Made by a program: the position numbers and the translations under genes. This document shows, in pieces, positions 5,072 through 27,734 of a stretch of 29,354 nt of DNA (its first letter is position 1; every line of letters starts with the position of its first letter). The notes below the pieces were generated by a model. The model did not search any database and had not been told where the DNA came from. It saw only the letters and a program-made list of their open reading frames with translations. The stretch is from Fibrobacteria bacterium (GTDB taxonomy: Bacteria; Fibrobacterota; Fibrobacteria; UBA11236), in assembly GCA_043745805.1 (NCBI GenBank), contig JAYTSD010000049.1, forward strand, positions 1-29,354, read 5' to 3'.

Positions 5072-5883
5072 AACAATATTTGGATTTAGTAAAACTGGTT
5101 TTGGAAAAGGGCGAGAAAAAAGAAGATCGCACGGGAACGGGAACCATTTCGGTTTTTGGAGCACAATGCAAATATGATTTGCGTGAAGGTTTCCCTTTAG
5201 TCACTACCAAAAAAACCCTTTTTGACGGGGTATTACGCGAGTTACTATGGTTTTTAAAAGGATCCACCAATATTAATGATGGGCTTAAGCAGTACACACC
5301 CATTTGGAATGCATGGGCCAAACCCGATGGCGAATTAGGTCCTATTTATGGCTATCAATGGCGGCGCTGGCCTAAATACACGCTCAATCCACAAAGCGGT
5401 GAATATAGTCAAGGCTCAATTGATCAAATTCAACAAGCACTCGATACCATTCGTAAAAATCCTGATTCACGACGCATCATAGTCAGTGCATGGAATGTGG
5501 CCGATATCGATTCCATGGCCTTACCGCCTTGCCACGCCTTCTTTCAATTTTATGTAGTAAATGGACGTTTGGATTTACAACTCTATCAACGTTCGGCAGA
5601 TATTGCTTTGGGCGTGCCTTTTAATATTGCGAGCTATGCTTTATTACTGCAAATGATGGCGCAGGAATGCAATCTCATCCCTGGGATTTTTACCCATACT
5701 TTGGGTGATGCGCATATTTATGTGAATCATATTGAAGGTTTGGAAAAACAATTACAACGAGAAGCTTATGCTTTGCCCAAAGTTACCATTGCGAATAAAC
5801 CTTTTTTTGATTTGCAATACGAAGACTTCACCTTAGAAAATTATATTCATCACCCTTTTATTAAGTTTGCAGTCGCTGTATGA
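5068..5883 (+). CDS. thyA: Thymidylate synthase ThyA
   Basis: [34 protein letters not shown], catalytic [30 protein letters not shown] overlap with the upstream gene. Confidence 0.98.
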
Positions 5884-6518
5884 GCTTTGCTTTAATTGTG
5901 GCCATGGAAAAAAATCGCGGTATTGGTTTTCAAGGCCGATTACCTTGGCCTCGTTTAAAAGGCGATATGGCTTTTTTTAAAGATACGACGCTCGGCGACA
6001 ATCTTCGAGAGGTGATGAGCCGCTACCAAATGATTACCGCTTTCCCCGATAAACGCGTGCTTGAATTTGATAAATTAACAGAAACTTTGGGATTAAAAAA
6101 TGATCCTATTATGGCAAATCCTGAAAAACCCAATACGGTTATTATGGGACATAATACATGGAATTCCCTACCCGAAAAATTTAGGCCTTTACCTCAACGT
6201 ATGAATATGGTTTTGACTCGTGATCCCAAAAATCCCATTGCGGGATCCCATTTTCAAACGGATAGCCTAAATGAAGCGATTGATAGTGCGCAAAATAATA
6301 AGGGATTTATTTATGTCATTGGAGGAGGCCAAATTTATTTGGAAGCTTTAAAACATCCGCAATGCCAATACATAATTATTACCCAAATTTTTTCGGAATT
6401 TCCTTGCGATACTTTTTTTCCTGAACTCTCGGCTGATTTCCAACTCATCACGCGTTCGCCGCATATCCGAGAAAATGATTTAGAATATTGTTTTCAACTC
6501 TTAGAACGCAAATCTTGA
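5880..6518 (+). CDS. folA: Dihydrofolate reductase with a ~45-aa insertion
   Basis: IVA...[53 protein letters not shown] overlap with thyA. Confidence 0.95.
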
Positions 6519-8233: not shown

Positions 8234-9064
8234 CTATTGCCGTTTGCGGTATTCCTCGAAACTAATGATTTTATTCTTTTGTCGACGCTTTATTTCACTC
8301 GCTTTATCCAGCTTTTCTTTTTCATCGGCGGTTAAAGCGCCCATGCCAAACTCGGAAATTTTTTTCAAAATGGGATCGATATCAATCATGGCTTCTTGAA
8401 CTACGACTTTTGATTTTTGCACTGCTTTATGCAAACTGGTTTCTTTACGATGTTGAAATTTCCAAAGCATATTTTCTCCCACACTTTCATAGCGTAAAAA
8501 AATAAATGCAAACAATGCACCTCCCAAATGGGTAATATGGGCGATGCCATCGTTGCTTACCATAAGTAGTATTTCAATTGCCCCAATAATCAATACCGCA
8601 TAACGCGCTTCCACCGAAAAAACAAAAAACATTTGGAATTGTTGTGTGGGGAAATATTTGGCAAAAGCAAACATCAAGGCAAACAAAGCTCCCGAGGCGC
8701 CAATAATGGGAGACATTTTTCCGGTCAAGGAATAAAACAGCAAAGAGCATAATGCGGAAAATATTCCCGCGCCTAAATAAAAGCCCAAGAATTTTTTCTC
8801 GCCCATAATTTGTACCAAGGGCACACCAAACATCCAGAGCATTAACATATTGAAAAGAATATGAAAAAAAGGTGGGTTAAGCGCATGGACAAACATATAG
8901 GTGGCAAAGCGCCAGATTTGATAATCATGAATAATGCGATAAGAATCCAAAGCAAAATAATGTTGAATCCACGCACCTTGGGTAAATAAATCCACTAAAA
9001 AAACAATAACGTTTATAATTAATAAACCTTTAACTACGCGCGGTAATAATCCCATTGGTTGCAT
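8234..9064 (-). CDS. Rhomboid intramembrane serine protease with a C-terminal soluble (DUF6576-like) domain
   Basis: WR motif, HILFNM, catalytic GASG and AHITHLGG; C-terminal IDPILKKISEFGMGALTADEKEKL. Confidence 0.92.
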   Translation of the reverse strand: MQPMGLLPRVVKGLLIINVIVFLVDLFTQGAWIQHYFALDSYRIIHDYQIWRFATYMFVHALNPPFFHILFNMLMLWMFGVPLVQIMGEKKFLGFYLGAGIFSALCSLLFYSLTGKMSPIIGASGALFALMFAFAKYFPTQQFQMFFVFSVEARYAVLIIGAIEILLMVSNDGIAHITHLGGALFAFIFLRYESVGENMLWKFQHRKETSLHKAVQKSKVVVQEAMIDIDPILKKISEFGMGALTADEKEKLDKASEIKRRQKNKIISFEEYRKRQ

Positions 9065-22761: not shown

Positions 22762-22777
22762 TGGCATGCTGGTCGCT
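22762..22777 (+). promoter_or_regulatory. Sigma54 (-24/-12) promoter of the PEP-CTERM gene
   Basis: TGGCATGCTGGTCGCT: GG (22763-64), N10, GC (22775-76), about 30 nt before the ATG at 22808. Confidence 0.7.
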
Positions 22778-22807
22778 TTAAATGAGGTTATAAAAAAAGG
22801 AACCTAC

Positions 22808-23365
22808 ATGAAATTCGGTATAAAAATTTTTGTCTTGGCGGCTTTCGTCGGAGCAATGCAACCCGCCTCCGCCTCACCTGTTTATTACTCTTTCCAAGGA
22901 ACGGTAAACACTTCAAATTTCGCTGACCATGCCGTTGGGAAAGCGGTTAACTACACCGTCATGGTTGATCAAGCAACCGATGGCTACTATCATGACGCAG
23001 GCGTAACAGTATACACTTACAACGATTATAATAATGGGTTCGGTTACACGGTTGACTTTTTTCTAGCTGAATATGTTAGTGGAGATGCACTTTCCAACAA
23101 TGAAGTTGGTTCACCTTATCTATACGATTATCATCTTGGGTATAACCAAAATTCTATTGGTACTATCAACGGTGTTGTGATTGGAAGTAATCCCAATAAC
23201 ACCTACAACAATAACTATGCAAGTACCTATGTCTACTCCGACCTGACTCTAATCGGCATTTCACAGGACGCTCCTGGAGCCCTTCCCGAACCTTCGACTT
23301 GGGCCCTATTTGATTTTGGCTTGATTGGCATGGGAGTCTTGACCCGCAAGCATCGATTGGCTTAG
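22808..23365 (+). CDS. PEP-CTERM sorting domain-containing exported protein
   Basis: Signal peptide MKFGIKIFVLAAFVGAMQPASA; Y/N/S/T-rich body; C-terminal LPEPSTWALF...TM...RKHR. The alternative ATG at 22766 falls inside the sigma54 motif, and AAGGA precedes 22808. Confidence 0.88.
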   Translation: MKFGIKIFVLAAFVGAMQPASASPVYYSFQGTVNTSNFADHAVGKAVNYTVMVDQATDGYYHDAGVTVYTYNDYNNGFGYTVDFFLAEYVSGDALSNNEVGSPYLYDYHLGYNQNSIGTINGVVIGSNPNNTYNNNYASTYVYSDLTLIGISQDAPGALPEPSTWALFDFGLIGMGVLTRKHRLA

Positions 23366-23372
23366 GCCGGCT

Positions 23373-24074
23373 CTACTGAGGTGTTATATGTCGAAAACCT
23401 TTAATAAAAAACACCTCTAAGGAATCATTCTCCAAATAACCTTTTACTGGATTACCCGAAAGACGGAAGGCTACATTTTCATTGTCCCAATATTTGTCAA
23501 AGCCATTCGCTTCGATTTCCTTTTGCCTTATACCGTGATGGAACTCACAAGTTGCCTCGCCATTGCGTGTTTTGATTTGGGTAATATTTATTTTTCCTGT
23601 AAAGAGTTGCTTAGGCCAAAAATCCCCCTGGCTATGGGTGAATACCAACCATAATCGCCTTATATGCTGATCATTGACGGGATGATTAAAAAGCATCTCC
23701 GCCGCAATGCCCAAACTATCCCAAACCACCATGCCACCTGATCTATCCAGTTTACGCGAAGGCTTGCCTAATATTTTTGTCCATTCCGTAAGCGAAGCGC
23801 CAAAGGGCATCGCTTTACCATTAAGTGTTAAGCTATCGCCAATCAATTGAAAACAAGGGCCGCTTCCACAGACAAATTTTTCTTTGGGTTTTGATTCCAT
23901 TGATTTTGATGGAGGCATCACTTGCAAAACTTCCTTTGATTTTTCCACTTTTTTTCCGTACATAAAGAGTACCACAACGGCAATAAACACTATTATTACC
24001 ATTAATACAAAAGCGACCATTATCAATTTAATAATTCCGATAATTTTCAAAATTTTTTGTATAAAATTCTTCAT
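23373..24074 (-). CDS. Membrane-anchored hypothetical protein, candidate immunity protein (paralog 2)
   Basis: Long N-terminal TM; shares NG...F.....W.K.LG.PS...W.SLG and F.GKI with the upstream gene; starts 1 nt after its stop. Confidence 0.6.
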   Translation of the reverse strand: MKNFIQKILKIIGIIKLIMVAFVLMVIIVFIAVVVLFMYGKKVEKSKEVLQVMPPSKSMESKPKEKFVCGSGPCFQLIGDSLTLNGKAMPFGASLTEWTKILGKPSRKLDRSGGMVVWDSLGIAAEMLFNHPVNDQHIRRLWLVFTHSQGDFWPKQLFTGKINITQIKTRNGEATCEFHHGIRQKEIEANGFDKYWDNENVAFRLSGNPVKGYLENDSLEVFFIKGFRHITPQ

Positions 24075-24075
24075 A

Positions 24076-24822
24076 TTAATCAGCTACTGTCAGTGTCATA
24101 TATTCAAAGTAATAGTTACATACATCTTTAGTTGAAGAGGAATAAATGGGAATATGCCCAAAATATCGGGTAACCGAAGTATTCTTGCCTTTTGCCAATT
24201 TCGAATTTTCGGGGCAGCGAAGAAAAACTTCTAAGTTCATATTAAAGCCATCTTGACCAAAAAGAAACATATAACCAAAAGCAGGATGCTGTCCAGATTC
24301 AGCATCAATAAAGGTTTTATTAGAGTCGATAGCCTTTTGTAAAGCACGGTAATGCGGAGTTCTTGACTCTAGTACGATGCCTTGTAAAATAATTTTTCCC
24401 GGAAAGCCATGGTCGAGATCGTGCTCTACATGACGATAATAGCGATCTGATTCGGAAAATTCGGTTACGTCACGTAACCATATTTTCAAGCCGCTAATAT
24501 AAACTCGCCCATCAATAGCTGAACTAACAAAAACACGCAGCCCTAAACTTTCCCAAATATATTCAGAATTGTTTTTATCGATTAAAATTTTGCTTGGCGG
24601 ACCCAATACCTTAATCCAGGTTTCCACTCTATCCATAAATCGAAGTGTGTTTCCATTGTAGCGAAGAATATTTCCGTCAATTTCCAAAGTGGGTAAAGAG
24701 GTGCTTTTTTTCAAACTCATATTAGGAGAATGAATAGAATCTGAACCAAATATTTGTGATATAAATATCATTATTAAGGTTATTAGGAGGCTTATTTTCC
24801 AAAGAATAGTTTTCAACTTCAT
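24076..24822 (-). CDS. Exported or membrane-anchored hypothetical protein, candidate immunity protein (paralog 1)
   Basis: N-terminal hydrophobic segment; ATGA overlap with the HET-C toxin gene; paralogous to the downstream gene. Confidence 0.6.
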   Translation of the reverse strand: MKLKTILWKISLLITLIMIFISQIFGSDSIHSPNMSLKKSTSLPTLEIDGNILRYNGNTLRFMDRVETWIKVLGPPSKILIDKNNSEYIWESLGLRVFVSSAIDGRVYISGLKIWLRDVTEFSESDRYYRHVEHDLDHGFPGKIILQGIVLESRTPHYRALQKAIDSNKTFIDAESGQHPAFGYMFLFGQDGFNMNLEVFLRCPENSKLAKGKNTSVTRYFGHIPIYSSSTKDVCNYYFEYMTLTVAD

Positions 24823-27734
24823 GCTAGTTTTAAAAGTGAAACCAAGCGGTCGGCATTCTTTTCATCGAAGGCATACATCTCTCTAGCTTCTTGCAAAGTT
24901 TTCTCCCTCTCAGCATGTACCTCCGCTAAAAAGCGTGCTTCGGAATGAGCTTTATCTAATAAAGGAATGATCGCAGGTTTTGCTTTCGCAAAATCCTTAA
25001 TCATTCCTAGGAGTATTGCAGGACCCGTTGCTAAGGTATCGTCTATATCATCTGGATGAATAAAATATTTAAGTGCTTCAATGACCACTTGATCAGGAGT
25101 ATTTTTTCCTTGCCAGCCATCACGCATAAATGTGCCAACATCTCTAACGGCTTCCTTTGCACAAAGAGCGGCAATGGAATGAAGTAGATTATCATCATGA
25201 TCTTTGGCAATCATGCTATGTGAAGGACAAGTAGAATTTGGATTCTTCAAAACTTCCCTTTCAAACTTACCAATTTCCTTAACTCGCTCGCGCATGGTAG
25301 CCCCAACTAATGCGCGTAATTTATCCATGAGTGGCTTGGTGGAATGGCACATAAAAGTCATAAATTTTGGATATTTTTCTTCTAATTTCTTAGCTTGCGT
25401 AAACAAGGATTCAATGGCACCACCGCCATCTTCCGTAAGCAACTTTAATAAATTTATGGCCAATACCGATGCTGGAGAAAAAACACCGGTTTCGCATTCA
25501 ATATCCTTTTCTAATCCTTCGCCTATAGCACTTATACCACTAATACCCGCATCATATAAGGCGAAGTTACCCGTAACCATGGGGATGCGAATTTGAGGTT
25601 TTCCATTACGGATTACGGTAATACGCGCGAGTTCGCCTATCCAAGGATGCACATTTTTATGGCCTAACCGAATAAGAGCTAATTCCACAAAATTACTATG
25701 TGCGTAAAGGTCTTCCAAGGTATGTAAAGCTTGTCCCAATAACCGCCTTCCTTCGGGGTTATAACCTTGTGCCAATGCCGCGCGCAAACTTTTCTCTACA
25801 AAATCGACTGCCGTCACAAAACCCTTACCTCGCGTGGCTATATATGCCTTAACACCTGTATTAGGATCCACATCAATTTCACCAGGAGCAACAGGGCCAT
25901 GAAATAAAGGATCAATAGCCGATCCATCGGTTATGCCTTGAGGATTGTCTATATGTTCTTCAGGGCGATAAACCCCACAATTGGCCAAGGTAACATGGAA
26001 AATACCTGAAGCATGCGCCGAAGGTGTAGCCGCTTTATCAAATTCTGACTTAGCACGTAAATCCAAATAATCCGTCATTATTTGTCGCGCTTTAGCCCCT
26101 TTTTTTATATAGGGGTTTTGGAAAATCACCAACCATCCTGGATCCAAAAATTGGGAATAATCTCTTAACCAATTTCCAAAATAAATTTCATCTCGATTTC
26201 TGAAACCCGAATTATTTTGATAGAAAATTTTATCTGCATCTCCTAACCCATCTTCAATACTCTGATGCCCAAACGAATCACCGGGATTCTGCACGTTTTT
26301 GGCACCTCGACCAGCTCCAAAAAATTCCAAAGTTTCCTTTTTTGCCTCATCTTGTTGAGTGGGATCGCTTAAATATTGTTTTGCTAAATCATGAAACTCT
26401 TGATAATTCAGAGCTAAAATCACGGACTTGCCATCGTGAGTTAAAGTGGCAAAATTAAACCCAGTATCATCTACATGATTTAATCCTGCGATCGCATAGG
26501 CAAAAAATCCACCTTCTTCTCCAGGCGCATCCCCTCCCACATTGGAATAATGTTTACGGAGCAAGGTATCAATATGATGTCCAAATTCATGCATCAATAA
26601 AGCACAAAGTTCCCCTGCTGAGGCATCATCGGCTTCAGCTGCCAAGGCTATTTCTTCACGCATTCCAATCATACGAGTGGCATTATCGTAGGCGCTATCC
26701 TTCCCTTCAACACCTCCCTGCACCAATTGAATTTCAGGTGGATTTAATTTTTTGTTCTTCAGATCATTGTACAAGGCGTGATAGGCCTCCAAAGGGATAT
26801 CGGATCCATATCCAAGAGTAGCCCATGCTACAAAAACATCTTCTTCCATTTTCGAGGCAACAATTTCAAAACGCTCTAAAGCGTAGCGTGACTCCAGCTT
26901 CGCTATTCCTGATTCTTCACCCAATACGATGTCAATATTATGTCCCACCTGCTTCAACCATGCTGGGTAATCTGTAGATCCCTTAGCGGAAGTCTTTGCA
27001 GCTGGAGCCGGAACAATAGGTCCATCAAAAAAGAAAATCTCCACCCGTCGATTATCAGCATCACGTTTACCATCCGCAGCATTGTCTACCGGAAAGTTTT
27101 CACCGCAACCATGAGTAGTAAGTTTAATAGTATTATTTGCATCTTGCGGCAAAGAGGTGCCGTCAATATTCATATAAGCTTGAATCAACGCCTTATGGGT
27201 TTTGGAACCGGCGATACCATCGTCTTTTAATCCTGCCGAGCTTTGAAAAGCCTTGACTGCCTCTTTGGTTTTTGTATCCTCTTTACCGGTAATATCTTTT
27301 TCCGTTAAAAATTTCTTTGCTGCTCCATCGGGCAAAGCCGATAACATGAATTGAACTTCTTTTATTCCCCACTTTTTTTCCGCGGGCTTATTGTCTCCAA
27401 AAAAAACGTCCCAGGTTTCCACCTTATCTTGCAAATACGCGGCTACGGCTTCCGCGCGTTCCAGAGACAAGCTGAGATTATAATCATCCTTACCTGACGT
27501 ATCAGTATGCCCTACCACCAGTAAATTACTATTAGGATGTAAATCGTATTGCTTTTTAATTTCCTTAATGCCATGCATCGCCGAAGGCAATAAAAAACAT
27601 TTGTTCAAATCAAAAAACATCCCGACCAAACGCACACGGGTTACCCCATTTTTAACGGCAAAAGAGTGGCTTTGTCCAGCTTGAACTTTTACTCCAACAA
27701 CTAACTCACTTGATGTAAAGCTTAAATTCGCCAT
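24819..27734 (-). CDS. Multidomain candidate toxin: OmpA_C-like domain with nested PG_binding_1, HExxH metallopeptidase-like domain, HET-C domain
   Basis: FFD...VVGHTD...YNLSLSLERAEAV...NRRVEI (OmpA_C); AVKAFQSSAGLKDDGIAG (PG_binding_1); LMHEFGHHID...EEG; HET-C motifs FGAG, YFGNWLRDYSQ, GVYRPEEHIDNP, GQALHTLEDLYAHSNFVELAL, PMVTGNF, PSHSMIAKDH. Confidence 0.85.
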   Translation of the reverse strand: MANLSFTSSELVVGVKVQAGQSHSFAVKNGVTRVRLVGMFFDLNKCFLLPSAMHGIKEIKKQYDLHPNSNLLVVGHTDTSGKDDYNLSLSLERAEAVAAYLQDKVETWDVFFGDNKPAEKKWGIKEVQFMLSALPDGAAKKFLTEKDITGKEDTKTKEAVKAFQSSAGLKDDGIAGSKTHKALIQAYMNIDGTSLPQDANNTIKLTTHGCGENFPVDNAADGKRDADNRRVEIFFFDGPIVPAPAAKTSAKGSTDYPAWLKQVGHNIDIVLGEESGIAKLESRYALERFEIVASKMEEDVFVAWATLGYGSDIPLEAYHALYNDLKNKKLNPPEIQLVQGGVEGKDSAYDNATRMIGMREEIALAAEADDASAGELCALLMHEFGHHIDTLLRKHYSNVGGDAPGEEGGFFAYAIAGLNHVDDTGFNFATLTHDGKSVILALNYQEFHDLAKQYLSDPTQQDEAKKETLEFFGAGRGAKNVQNPGDSFGHQSIEDGLGDADKIFYQNNSGFRNRDEIYFGNWLRDYSQFLDPGWLVIFQNPYIKKGAKARQIMTDYLDLRAKSEFDKAATPSAHASGIFHVTLANCGVYRPEEHIDNPQGITDGSAIDPLFHGPVAPGEIDVDPNTGVKAYIATRGKGFVTAVDFVEKSLRAALAQGYNPEGRRLLGQALHTLEDLYAHSNFVELALIRLGHKNVHPWIGELARITVIRNGKPQIRIPMVTGNFALYDAGISGISAIGEGLEKDIECETGVFSPASVLAINLLKLLTEDGGGAIESLFTQAKKLEEKYPKFMTFMCHSTKPLMDKLRALVGATMRERVKEIGKFEREVLKNPNSTCPSHSMIAKDHDDNLLHSIAALCAKEAVRDVGTFMRDGWQGKNTPDQVVIEALKYFIHPDDIDDTLATGPAILLGMIKDFAKAKPAIIPLLDKAHSEARFLAEVHAEREKTLQEAREMYAFDEKNADRLVSLLKLA

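Follow-up and report, generated by a model that had tools for sequence, protein, structure and literature searches.

An orphan Het-C protein with two DUF7738 partner genes as a candidate type VI effector-immunity module in a Fibrobacteria genome

The 29,354-nt contig JAYTSD010000049.1 of a Fibrobacteria bacterium (assembly GCA_043745805.1), called the window here over its full length, carries three minus-strand genes at 23373..27734 that are candidates for a type VI secretion system (T6SS) effector-immunity module. Gene A (24819..27734, 971 aa) encodes a candidate T6SS cargo effector in which an OmpA-like/PG_binding_1 module is followed by a HExxH-containing region and a Het-C domain. Gene B (24076..24822, 248 aa) and gene C (23373..24074, 233 aa) both encode DUF7738 proteins, B with a signal-peptide-like N-terminal segment and C with an N-terminal membrane helix, and they represent a 'first-position' and a 'second-position' subfamily of candidate immunity proteins, respectively. 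An original prediction, made from the letters of the sequence, had described three tightly coupled genes at this place, and the open reading frames (ORFs) and both junctions read on the DNA confirm this. The stop codon of A and the start codon of B overlap in ATGA (GCATGAAG), and B and C are separated by a single nucleotide (GATTAA T ATGAAG). An AGGA lies just 5' of the ATG of gene A, and a spacer of 134 nt separates A from the upstream gene, which encodes a Big_13 domain. A scan for promoter-like sites (17 against 13.8 expected) and terminator-like sites (5 against 5.5) stayed at chance level and gives no support for the limits of an operon. At positions 24001..25000 of the window, a stretch that takes in gene B together with the 3' end of A, the G+C content is 35.5%, while the adjacent kilobases have about 40%.

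Domains of the three gene products

The N-terminal module of A is an OmpA-like peptidoglycan-binding domain at residues ~22-238 (27021..27671, minus strand; 40.0 bits in Pfam), recognized both by its profile hit and by its fold. It is split by an insert, and a PG_binding_1 module at residues ~107-194 (27153..27416, minus strand; 40.3 bits) lies inside it. The AlphaFold2 model of A, built from a 20-sequence alignment, has a mean predicted local distance difference test score (pLDDT) of 80.6 and a predicted template modelling score (pTM) of 0.62. The N-terminus of A has no hydrophobic stretch, and the reading frame is open for 15 codons upstream of the first start and no further (a frame of 986 aa), so that the protein lacks a signal peptide, as had been predicted. 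Since A carries two peptidoglycan-binding modules and yet no signal peptide, it would need a route other than Sec to reach a periplasm.

The core of the Het-C domain occupies residues ~472-900 (25035..26321, minus strand), and its conserved set of His, Asp and Glu residues is intact. Pfam matches Het-C to A in two stretches with 198.7 bits and an E-value of 2e-58, far over the cut-off of 21, and a six-frame search of the genome gives Het-C matches of 159 and 41.8 bits in the same gene. The whole motif series from which the domain had originally been named is present in the translation: FGAG at 472-475, YFGNWLRDYSQ at 518-528, YRPEEHIDNP, HTLEDLYAHSNFVEL at 671-685 and PSHSMIAKDH. For the Tox-HET-C domain of bacterial toxins, the conserved series H, [DE], HxD, HxxxDxxxH, Nxx[DE] and [ST]G was given in a survey of polymorphic toxins (Zhang et al., 2012, PMC3482391; this and the other papers cited below are used for the parts of their text that were accessible). 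A carries H490, E494, H594-I-D596, H671-TLE-D675-LYA-H679, N681-FV-E684 and T721-G722, all invariant or at least 90% conserved in the alignment of homologues. We infer that H490 and E494 are the first two elements of the Tox-HET-C series.

To our knowledge, no biochemical activity of a Het-C domain has ever been shown, in fungi or in bacteria. Comparison of the model with 48,161 representative chains of the PDB, made by a route other than Foldseek, gave only three zinc phospholipases C among the top 50 rows on residues 472-877. These are the enzymes of Listeria (8cqm_B; row values 7.9, 3.6 and 157), Clostridium absonum (1olp_A; 7.5, 4.2 and 156) and Bacillus cereus (1ah7_A; 7.4, 3.9 and 160 of 245), and each match covers nearly the whole enzyme. 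The borderline prediction that Zhang et al. (PMC3482391) made from profiles agrees with these matches. The effector-immunity complex TseN-TsiN (9j9w; PMC12574953) is found among the structural matches that score too low to name a fold. Foldseek against the PDB returned nothing at E<=0.001 with either model, the Het-C family profile had 0 matches to PDB sequences at E<=1, and hhalign gave a probability of 0.7% between the Het-C alignment and ten S1-P1 nucleases from the same phylum. Weighing the phospholipase C rows against these null results, the Het-C part of A is likely to be a metal-dependent hydrolase, and a phospholipase C-like nature is only the best guess from the model. The phospholipase C/S1-P1 nuclease-like fold, which the original prediction had cited as predicted for HET-C, is indeed published as a prediction (Zhang et al., 2012, PMC3482391), and the structural and profile results obtained here support it weakly. 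A more recent account likewise calls Het-C 'uncharacterized', with a 'proposed' phospholipase or nuclease function (2026, PMC13055248).

Between the N-terminal module and Het-C lies an alpha/beta region, possibly zincin-like, at residues 280-470 (26325..26897, minus strand). It is conserved among bacterial Het-C proteins and aligns across all bacterial homologues, including Pseudomonas proteins of ~720 aa. Its HEFGH motif (residues 382-386; 26577..26591, minus strand) falls on a predicted helix at 370-395, which is preceded by three short strands in the model of A, and a pair of glutamates follows at 406-407, twenty residues after H386. The spacing from HEFGH to this Glu pair presumably recalls that of gluzincins. 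In a census of 72 host ORFs, HExxH was found in 47 and EExxH in 9, while 3 had degenerate variants (RAFGE, NAFGH), 3 were mis-picks of the regular expression and 10 had no match. Residues 269-470 searched alone match no Pfam family even at E<=10. The nearest clusters of region 280-470 in the ESM Atlas are Tox-MPTase3 (0.80) and Peptidase_M48 (0.79), and such scores of about 0.80 are reached by shuffled proteins in a third of cases. Identity as a zincin metallopeptidase is therefore a lead only. Of the architecture originally proposed for A (OmpA/peptidoglycan-binding, peptidase, HET-C), the OmpA, PG_binding_1 and Het-C parts are confirmed by Pfam; the peptidase part is not, as it comes down to the HExxH motif.

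Pfam assigns both partner proteins to DUF7738, B at residues 45-156 (E 2.4e-12) and C at residues 77-167 (E 8.1e-18). BLASTP aligns the two over 134 columns with 27% identity (E 6e-9), and both start with hydrophobic segments, in keeping with the mutual paralogy and the N-terminal anchors first noticed in the translations. In the model of C, a helix spans residues 2-39 and a beta-rich core lies at 74-180. B is probably soluble after cleavage of its signal peptide, and C is probably anchored in the membrane via its modelled helix. A hydrophobic N-terminal stretch is present in 36 of 37 DUF7738 proteins; a strict lipobox pattern is present in 10 of the 37, and in many a lipobox-like Cys closes the hydrophobic stretch. 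Judged by these signals, the DUF7738 proteins are exported, which indicates the periplasm as their place of action. Divergence within the family is high (mean column identity 18%), too high for word matching, and a word-based homologue search with C recovered only C itself. Among 1.84 billion representative proteins, HMMER detected 1,410 DUF7738 proteins at E<=0.001, most of them 180-280 aa long and some being tandem fusions with up to 4 repeats. For example, four DUF7738 stretches stand in tandem in P0090 (972 aa).

Relatives, gene neighbourhoods and secretion systems

A word-seeded HMMER search with A collected 88 proteins. Fifteen of them (P0002-P0016) have the whole architecture of A at 53-62% identity, and the source labels on some of these name metagenome-assembled genomes of Fibrobacteria, Fibrobacteres, Polyangia and Myxococcaceae. 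In distant relatives, the catalytic part is fused to VgrG domains (P0022, P0033, P0046), and it is also found fused to PAAR (P0053, P0056, P0058), Tox-PAAR-like (P0032, P0034) or LysM domains (P0023, P0026, P0035, P0043), and to the eCIS_core domain of extracellular contractile injection systems (eCIS) in P0087 and P0088. In P0037, a VgrG, the C-terminal extension (497-750) shares 61% identity with residues 19-276 of A, indicating that the peptidoglycan-binding module itself travels on spikes.

The gene neighbourhood was surveyed in 77 loci, taken from 231 confirmed relatives in contigs of one genome per species. Pfam found DUF7738 in 35 of 63 downstream ORFs scanned, in 30 loci. A hidden Markov model (HMM) of these 35 ORFs plus B and C was then run on all six-frame ORFs of the 77 loci. 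At least one DUF7738 ORF is present in 36 of the 77 Het-C loci, a count that is partly circular with respect to the HMM, and almost all of these ORFs follow the Het-C gene directly on its 3' side, so that the downstream family does co-occur with Het-C. Pseudomonas accounts for 35 of the 41 negative loci and other sources for six. The gene runs into the end of the contig in four of these 41 (L009, L025, L049, L056). The ~720-aa Het-C genes of Pseudomonas adjoin TatC/PhoX, phosphotransferase system or solute-binding genes. After VgrG-Het-C genes of Stenotrophomonas, there are arrays of 5-8 DUF7738 ORFs (L028, L029, L031, L042). Some ORFs in these arrays (L042:8064-13377; also L028, L029, L031) are short or overlap one another, which resembles the orphan immunity islands seen at other T6SS loci. 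Among the 23 DUF7738-positive loci examined upstream, 14 have a T6SS marker, namely a fused VgrG (8), a vgrG gene upstream (2), a Tox-PAAR-like N-terminus (3) or a DUF2169 gene upstream (1). No T6SS marker was found at any of the six DUF7738-negative loci examined.

In a maximum-likelihood tree of 36 DUF7738 proteins, from which three near-identical rows had been removed, the genes separate by position. One clade (support 99/99) unites the genes in first position in the window, L007, L008, L011 and G249, and another (99/95) those in second position in the window, L008, L011 and G249. The contig of L007 stops 137 nt past its first DUF7738 gene, and L008 and G258 are of one genome, as their coinciding coordinates show. 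The order of B-type and C-type genes is kept across Fibrobacterota and Myxococcota loci. By this tree, the duplication that gave B and C is older than the spread of the effector class between Fibrobacterota-type and Myxococcota genomes. Retention of both copies in the same order also argues for non-redundant roles of B and C.

Het-C exceeds the cut-off in 5 of 296 genomes of the phylum, tallies that include one genome flagged as unpublished (G254). All five encode TssC, against 115 of the 296 overall; this is weak evidence of co-occurrence because the genomes are related. DUF7738 is found in 11 genomes of the phylum and stands beside Het-C in 4 of them: G000, G249 (2 copies), G258 (2) and G283 (3). 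In three genomes reached via Het-C loci, all DUF7738 matches are at the Het-C locus. In the family of G296, DUF7738 occurs in 2 of 151 genomes, one of them at a VgrG-Het-C gene. A separate case is G039 (L119:3909-9273), in which an 888-aa Het-C protein is encoded beside an annexin-like protein of 282 aa and a Tle1-like phospholipase effector, with no DUF7738 gene and with a PG_binding_1 protein two genes upstream. Its gene content suggests another kind of effector island, with another candidate immunity gene.

The source genome (3.95 Mb in 50 contigs) has one Het-C gene and only two DUF7738 genes, B and C. The search for injection systems that the original prediction had proposed found both kinds. 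A T6SS core on contig C22 comprises TssK, L, M, A, B, C, Hcp and TssE, F and G (ClpV lay outside the search). The single VgrG gene is on C37 between housekeeping genes, and PAAR genes are on C3 and C40. On C43 (L120-L123, ~114-146 kb), an eCIS is represented by a Phage_sheath_1 gene and three eCIS_core/DUF4157 proteins with open frames of 724, 1021 and 1093 aa.

Predicted mode of action and competing explanations

We consider it likely that the locus encodes an orphan T6SS-type Het-C effector together with two DUF7738 immunity genes. The effector-plus-two-immunity-genes inference of the original prediction is supported by the 36 positive neighbourhoods among 77, the VgrG and PAAR fusions of relatives, the T6SS core in the genome and the export signals of DUF7738. 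A bacterial target in the periplasm is favoured by the export of the immunity proteins and by the peptidoglycan-binding modules. A would be made in the cytoplasm without a signal peptide and be loaded on the orphan VgrG of C37, perhaps via its first ~20 residues. These residues are suggested for loading because they are absent where the module is fused to the spike (P0037). The T6SS encoded on C22 would then fire A into the periplasm of a neighbouring Gram-negative cell, where the OmpA-like/PG_binding_1 module may hold it on peptidoglycan. There, the HExxH region and Het-C may act as a metal-dependent hydrolase on a substrate in the envelope, the likeliest being membrane phospholipid cleaved in the manner of a phospholipase C. 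B and C would be exported to the periplasm of the producer and would bind and neutralize A arriving from sister cells. Observed are the domains and the order of the genes, the conserved neighbourhood of Het-C and DUF7738, the fusions to T6SS markers in relatives, the T6SS genes of the genome and the export signals; how A is delivered, its action in the periplasm, immunity through binding and an enzymatic activity are inferred steps of this scheme.

Several findings weigh against this view of the locus. No T6SS gene (vgrG, hcp, PAAR or adaptor) is found in the 29-kb window, and the flanks are housekeeping and surface-protein genes. The locus is thus an 'orphan', whose membership among T6SS cargo effectors rests on homology. 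The presence of an eCIS means that the T6SS is not the only injection device available in the genome. Nine of the 23 DUF7738-positive loci examined have no adjacent T6SS marker, including the closest orthologous loci (L007, L008, L011). In the neighbourhood census, 30 of the 36 positive loci had fed the HMM and only 6 are independent of it, and related genomes are not independent samples. Among the 11 DUF7738-positive genomes of the phylum, 7 have only weaker matches in unrelated contexts. These score ~31 bits in three rescanned proteins, and in four of the five best-scoring genomes they are short and confined to the N-terminal half; the Pfam family is therefore wider than the clade linked to Het-C. 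In G410, the other DUF7738-positive genome in the family of G296, the gene lies where a contig ends, and the 2.4-Mb assembly yielded no Het-C. One of the weaker matches, in G059 (L118:4480-5592, minus strand), covers profile positions 13-66 with 31 bits and is fused behind a Methyltransf_4 (TrmB-like) domain.

Competing explanations differ in which part of A would kill, how it would be delivered and whom it would hit. It is unlikely, in our estimate, that the module is of the same kind but the lethal activity comes from the HExxH region, being proteolytic or directed at peptidoglycan, with Het-C as an accessory for targeting or membrane binding. The placement of the motif on a helix after three short strands, the Glu pair 20 residues past the second His, its retention in 47 of 72 host ORFs and the metallopeptidase toxins among the nearest Atlas clusters all suit such an activity, as do the OmpA, PG_binding_1 and LysM modules that recur in the effector family. 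However, no peptidase family matches the region even at E<=10, and shuffled proteins reach comparable Atlas scores a third of the time. In addition, 9 hosts have Glu in place of the first His and others a degenerate motif, whereas the Het-C residues are invariant, and HExxH is retained by the Pseudomonas proteins although these lack an immunity gene. Distinctly unlikely, too, is the assumption of two warheads, in which the B-type and the C-type DUF7738 protein would each neutralize one of the HExxH region and Het-C, and Het-C held on peptidoglycan would cleave a phosphodiester of an envelope lipid near the wall. This bond would be in phospholipid head groups or in a lipid-linked cell-wall precursor. 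Two catalytic modules would explain why two anciently diverged immunity paralogues are kept. If so, a Het-C domain would for the first time have a known biochemical activity, and killing by fungal HET-C could be modelled on it.

Delivery by the eCIS instead of the T6SS is quite improbable, though the sheath gene and three eCIS_core proteins are at hand on C43, Het-C stands behind eCIS_core domains in P0087 and P0088, and export by Photorhabdus virulence cassettes (PVC) was given for Tox-HET-C (Zhang et al., 2012, PMC3482391). A has no eCIS_core domain (PF13699) among its Pfam matches at E<=0.01, and the same library detects this domain in P0087 and P0088 as well as in the three C43 proteins. 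The closer relatives of A carry T6SS_Vgr and DUF2345 (VgrG fusions), Tox-PAAR-like domains or DUF2169 adaptors, and PVC toxins often have no adjacent immunity genes (Zhang et al., 2012, PMC3482391), whereas gene A has two. A fungal or other eukaryotic main target, as proposed for PhcA of Pseudomonas syringae, with any antibacterial role being secondary, is highly improbable. The domain is indeed common to fungal HET-C proteins (fungal matches with E 1e-30 to 1e-47), and PhcA expressed in Neurospora triggers incompatibility (2025 preprint). Exported immunity proteins and peptidoglycan-binding modules, however, make sense only against Gram-negative periplasms, and the PhcA-like Pseudomonas loci form a class without DUF7738 and, where examined, without T6SS markers. 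Natural delivery of PhcA to fungi has also never been observed according to the accessible text of the same preprint. Finally, A might be no toxin at all, being an enzyme for the cell envelope of the producer with two lipoprotein-like accessory partners. The housekeeping and surface-protein neighbours and the lack of an adjacent secretion gene would fit this, but it is barely credible for a protein that has no signal peptide, and so could not reach its own peptidoglycan by Sec. The sporadic distribution in the phylum (6 of 296 genomes), the fusion of relatives to VgrG or PAAR and the occurrence of the partner gene in arrays are also at odds with it.

Known systems, significance and the rest of the window

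T6SS effector-immunity modules are well known as a general kind, and the background on Het-C from which the original prediction started holds in the sources: occurrence in bacterial toxins is covered by Zhang et al. (2012, PMC3482391) and PhcA by the 2025 preprint. Het-C toxin domains were predicted for the T6SS, the type II secretion system and PVC (Zhang et al., 2012, PMC3482391). A shares the domain and motif series of this Tox-HET-C, and the T6SS is among its predicted routes. In the table of that paper, the immunity protein of Tox-HET-C is given as '-' and the associated protease as PVC-metallopeptidase; in contrast, the loci studied here have DUF7738 as a recurrent candidate immunity family, and their HExxH region is another, unnamed one. 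Evolved VgrG proteins with Het-C have been described in Acinetobacter (2019, PMC6838775) and Stenotrophomonas maltophilia (2026, PMC13055248), by bioinformatics only and with 'unknown function', and the accessible text of these accounts names no DUF7738 immunity gene. S. maltophilia VgrG4 (S25/S377) and the LysM+Het-C VgrGs of Acinetobacter bereziniae resemble A in having HExxH and Het-C, with ~32-33% identity over residues ~280-900 (compared at loci L028 and L040-L042), in having a peptidoglycan-binding module in some cases, and in having DUF7738 genes directly downstream. Unlike these spike-fused proteins, A is a free-standing cargo with an OmpA-like/PG_binding_1 N-terminus at an orphan locus.

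PhcA and the ~720-aa 'HET-C-related proteins' of Pseudomonas have the HExxH plus Het-C core in common with A (~29-33% identity over residues ~280-900), and differ from it in having no OmpA/peptidoglycan-binding module and, at the loci examined, no DUF7738 neighbour and no T6SS marker. The only role reported for PhcA in the accessible literature is its interaction with Neurospora (2025 preprint). The Het-C domain of A is homologous to that of Neurospora crassa HET-C, the founding member of the family (PF07217), with fungal matches having E-values down to 3.7e-47; unlike A, the fungal proteins have neither a peptidoglycan-binding N-terminus nor a DUF7738 partner. Fungal HET-C proteins act in allorecognition. 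Another useful comparison is with the Tle phospholipases, which are delivered by the T6SS and act on membrane lipid from the periplasm. Their Tli immunity proteins are exported or are lipoproteins, and often exist in several copies. By analogy, A with B and C would work in the same way. However, A is not a member of this group, since Tle enzymes are alpha/beta-hydrolase or phospholipase D-type lipases and the Het-C part is all-helical, with at best a phospholipase C-like fold.

In the literature searched, which lies mostly outside subscription journals, there was no experimental study of a Het-C T6SS effector, no cognate immunity family for Het-C and no paper with the term DUF7738. Three features appear to be new, on the sequence evidence above: a candidate cognate immunity family for Het-C, an OmpA/PG_binding_1 architecture that is free-standing, and two immunity paralogues conserved as a pair. 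With its exported immunity family, a bacterial Het-C effector would offer a simple system for finding the activity of Het-C through toxicity, rescue, binding and structure. The link to Het-C also gives a candidate function to DUF7738, which numbers at least 1,410 representative proteins, and records a candidate T6SS effector in Fibrobacterota-type genomes.

Outside the module, the window carries the housekeeping genes pyrG, kdsB, a UvrD/PcrA helicase gene, thyA, folA, coaD and rsmD, as well as genes for a protein with a type IX secretion system (T9SS) tail and for a PEP-CTERM protein. The PEP-CTERM-type gene (22766..23365, plus strand) is convergent with gene C, their stop codons being 7 nt apart. 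A rhomboid-family protease is encoded 14 kb from it (8234..9064, minus strand) and has a weak rhombosortase match of 34 bits against a cut-off of 84. In dihydrofolate reductase (212 aa; 5880..6518, plus strand), the family models match two stretches, at ~1-42 and 85-211, which suggests an insertion of ~40 residues near the N-terminus.

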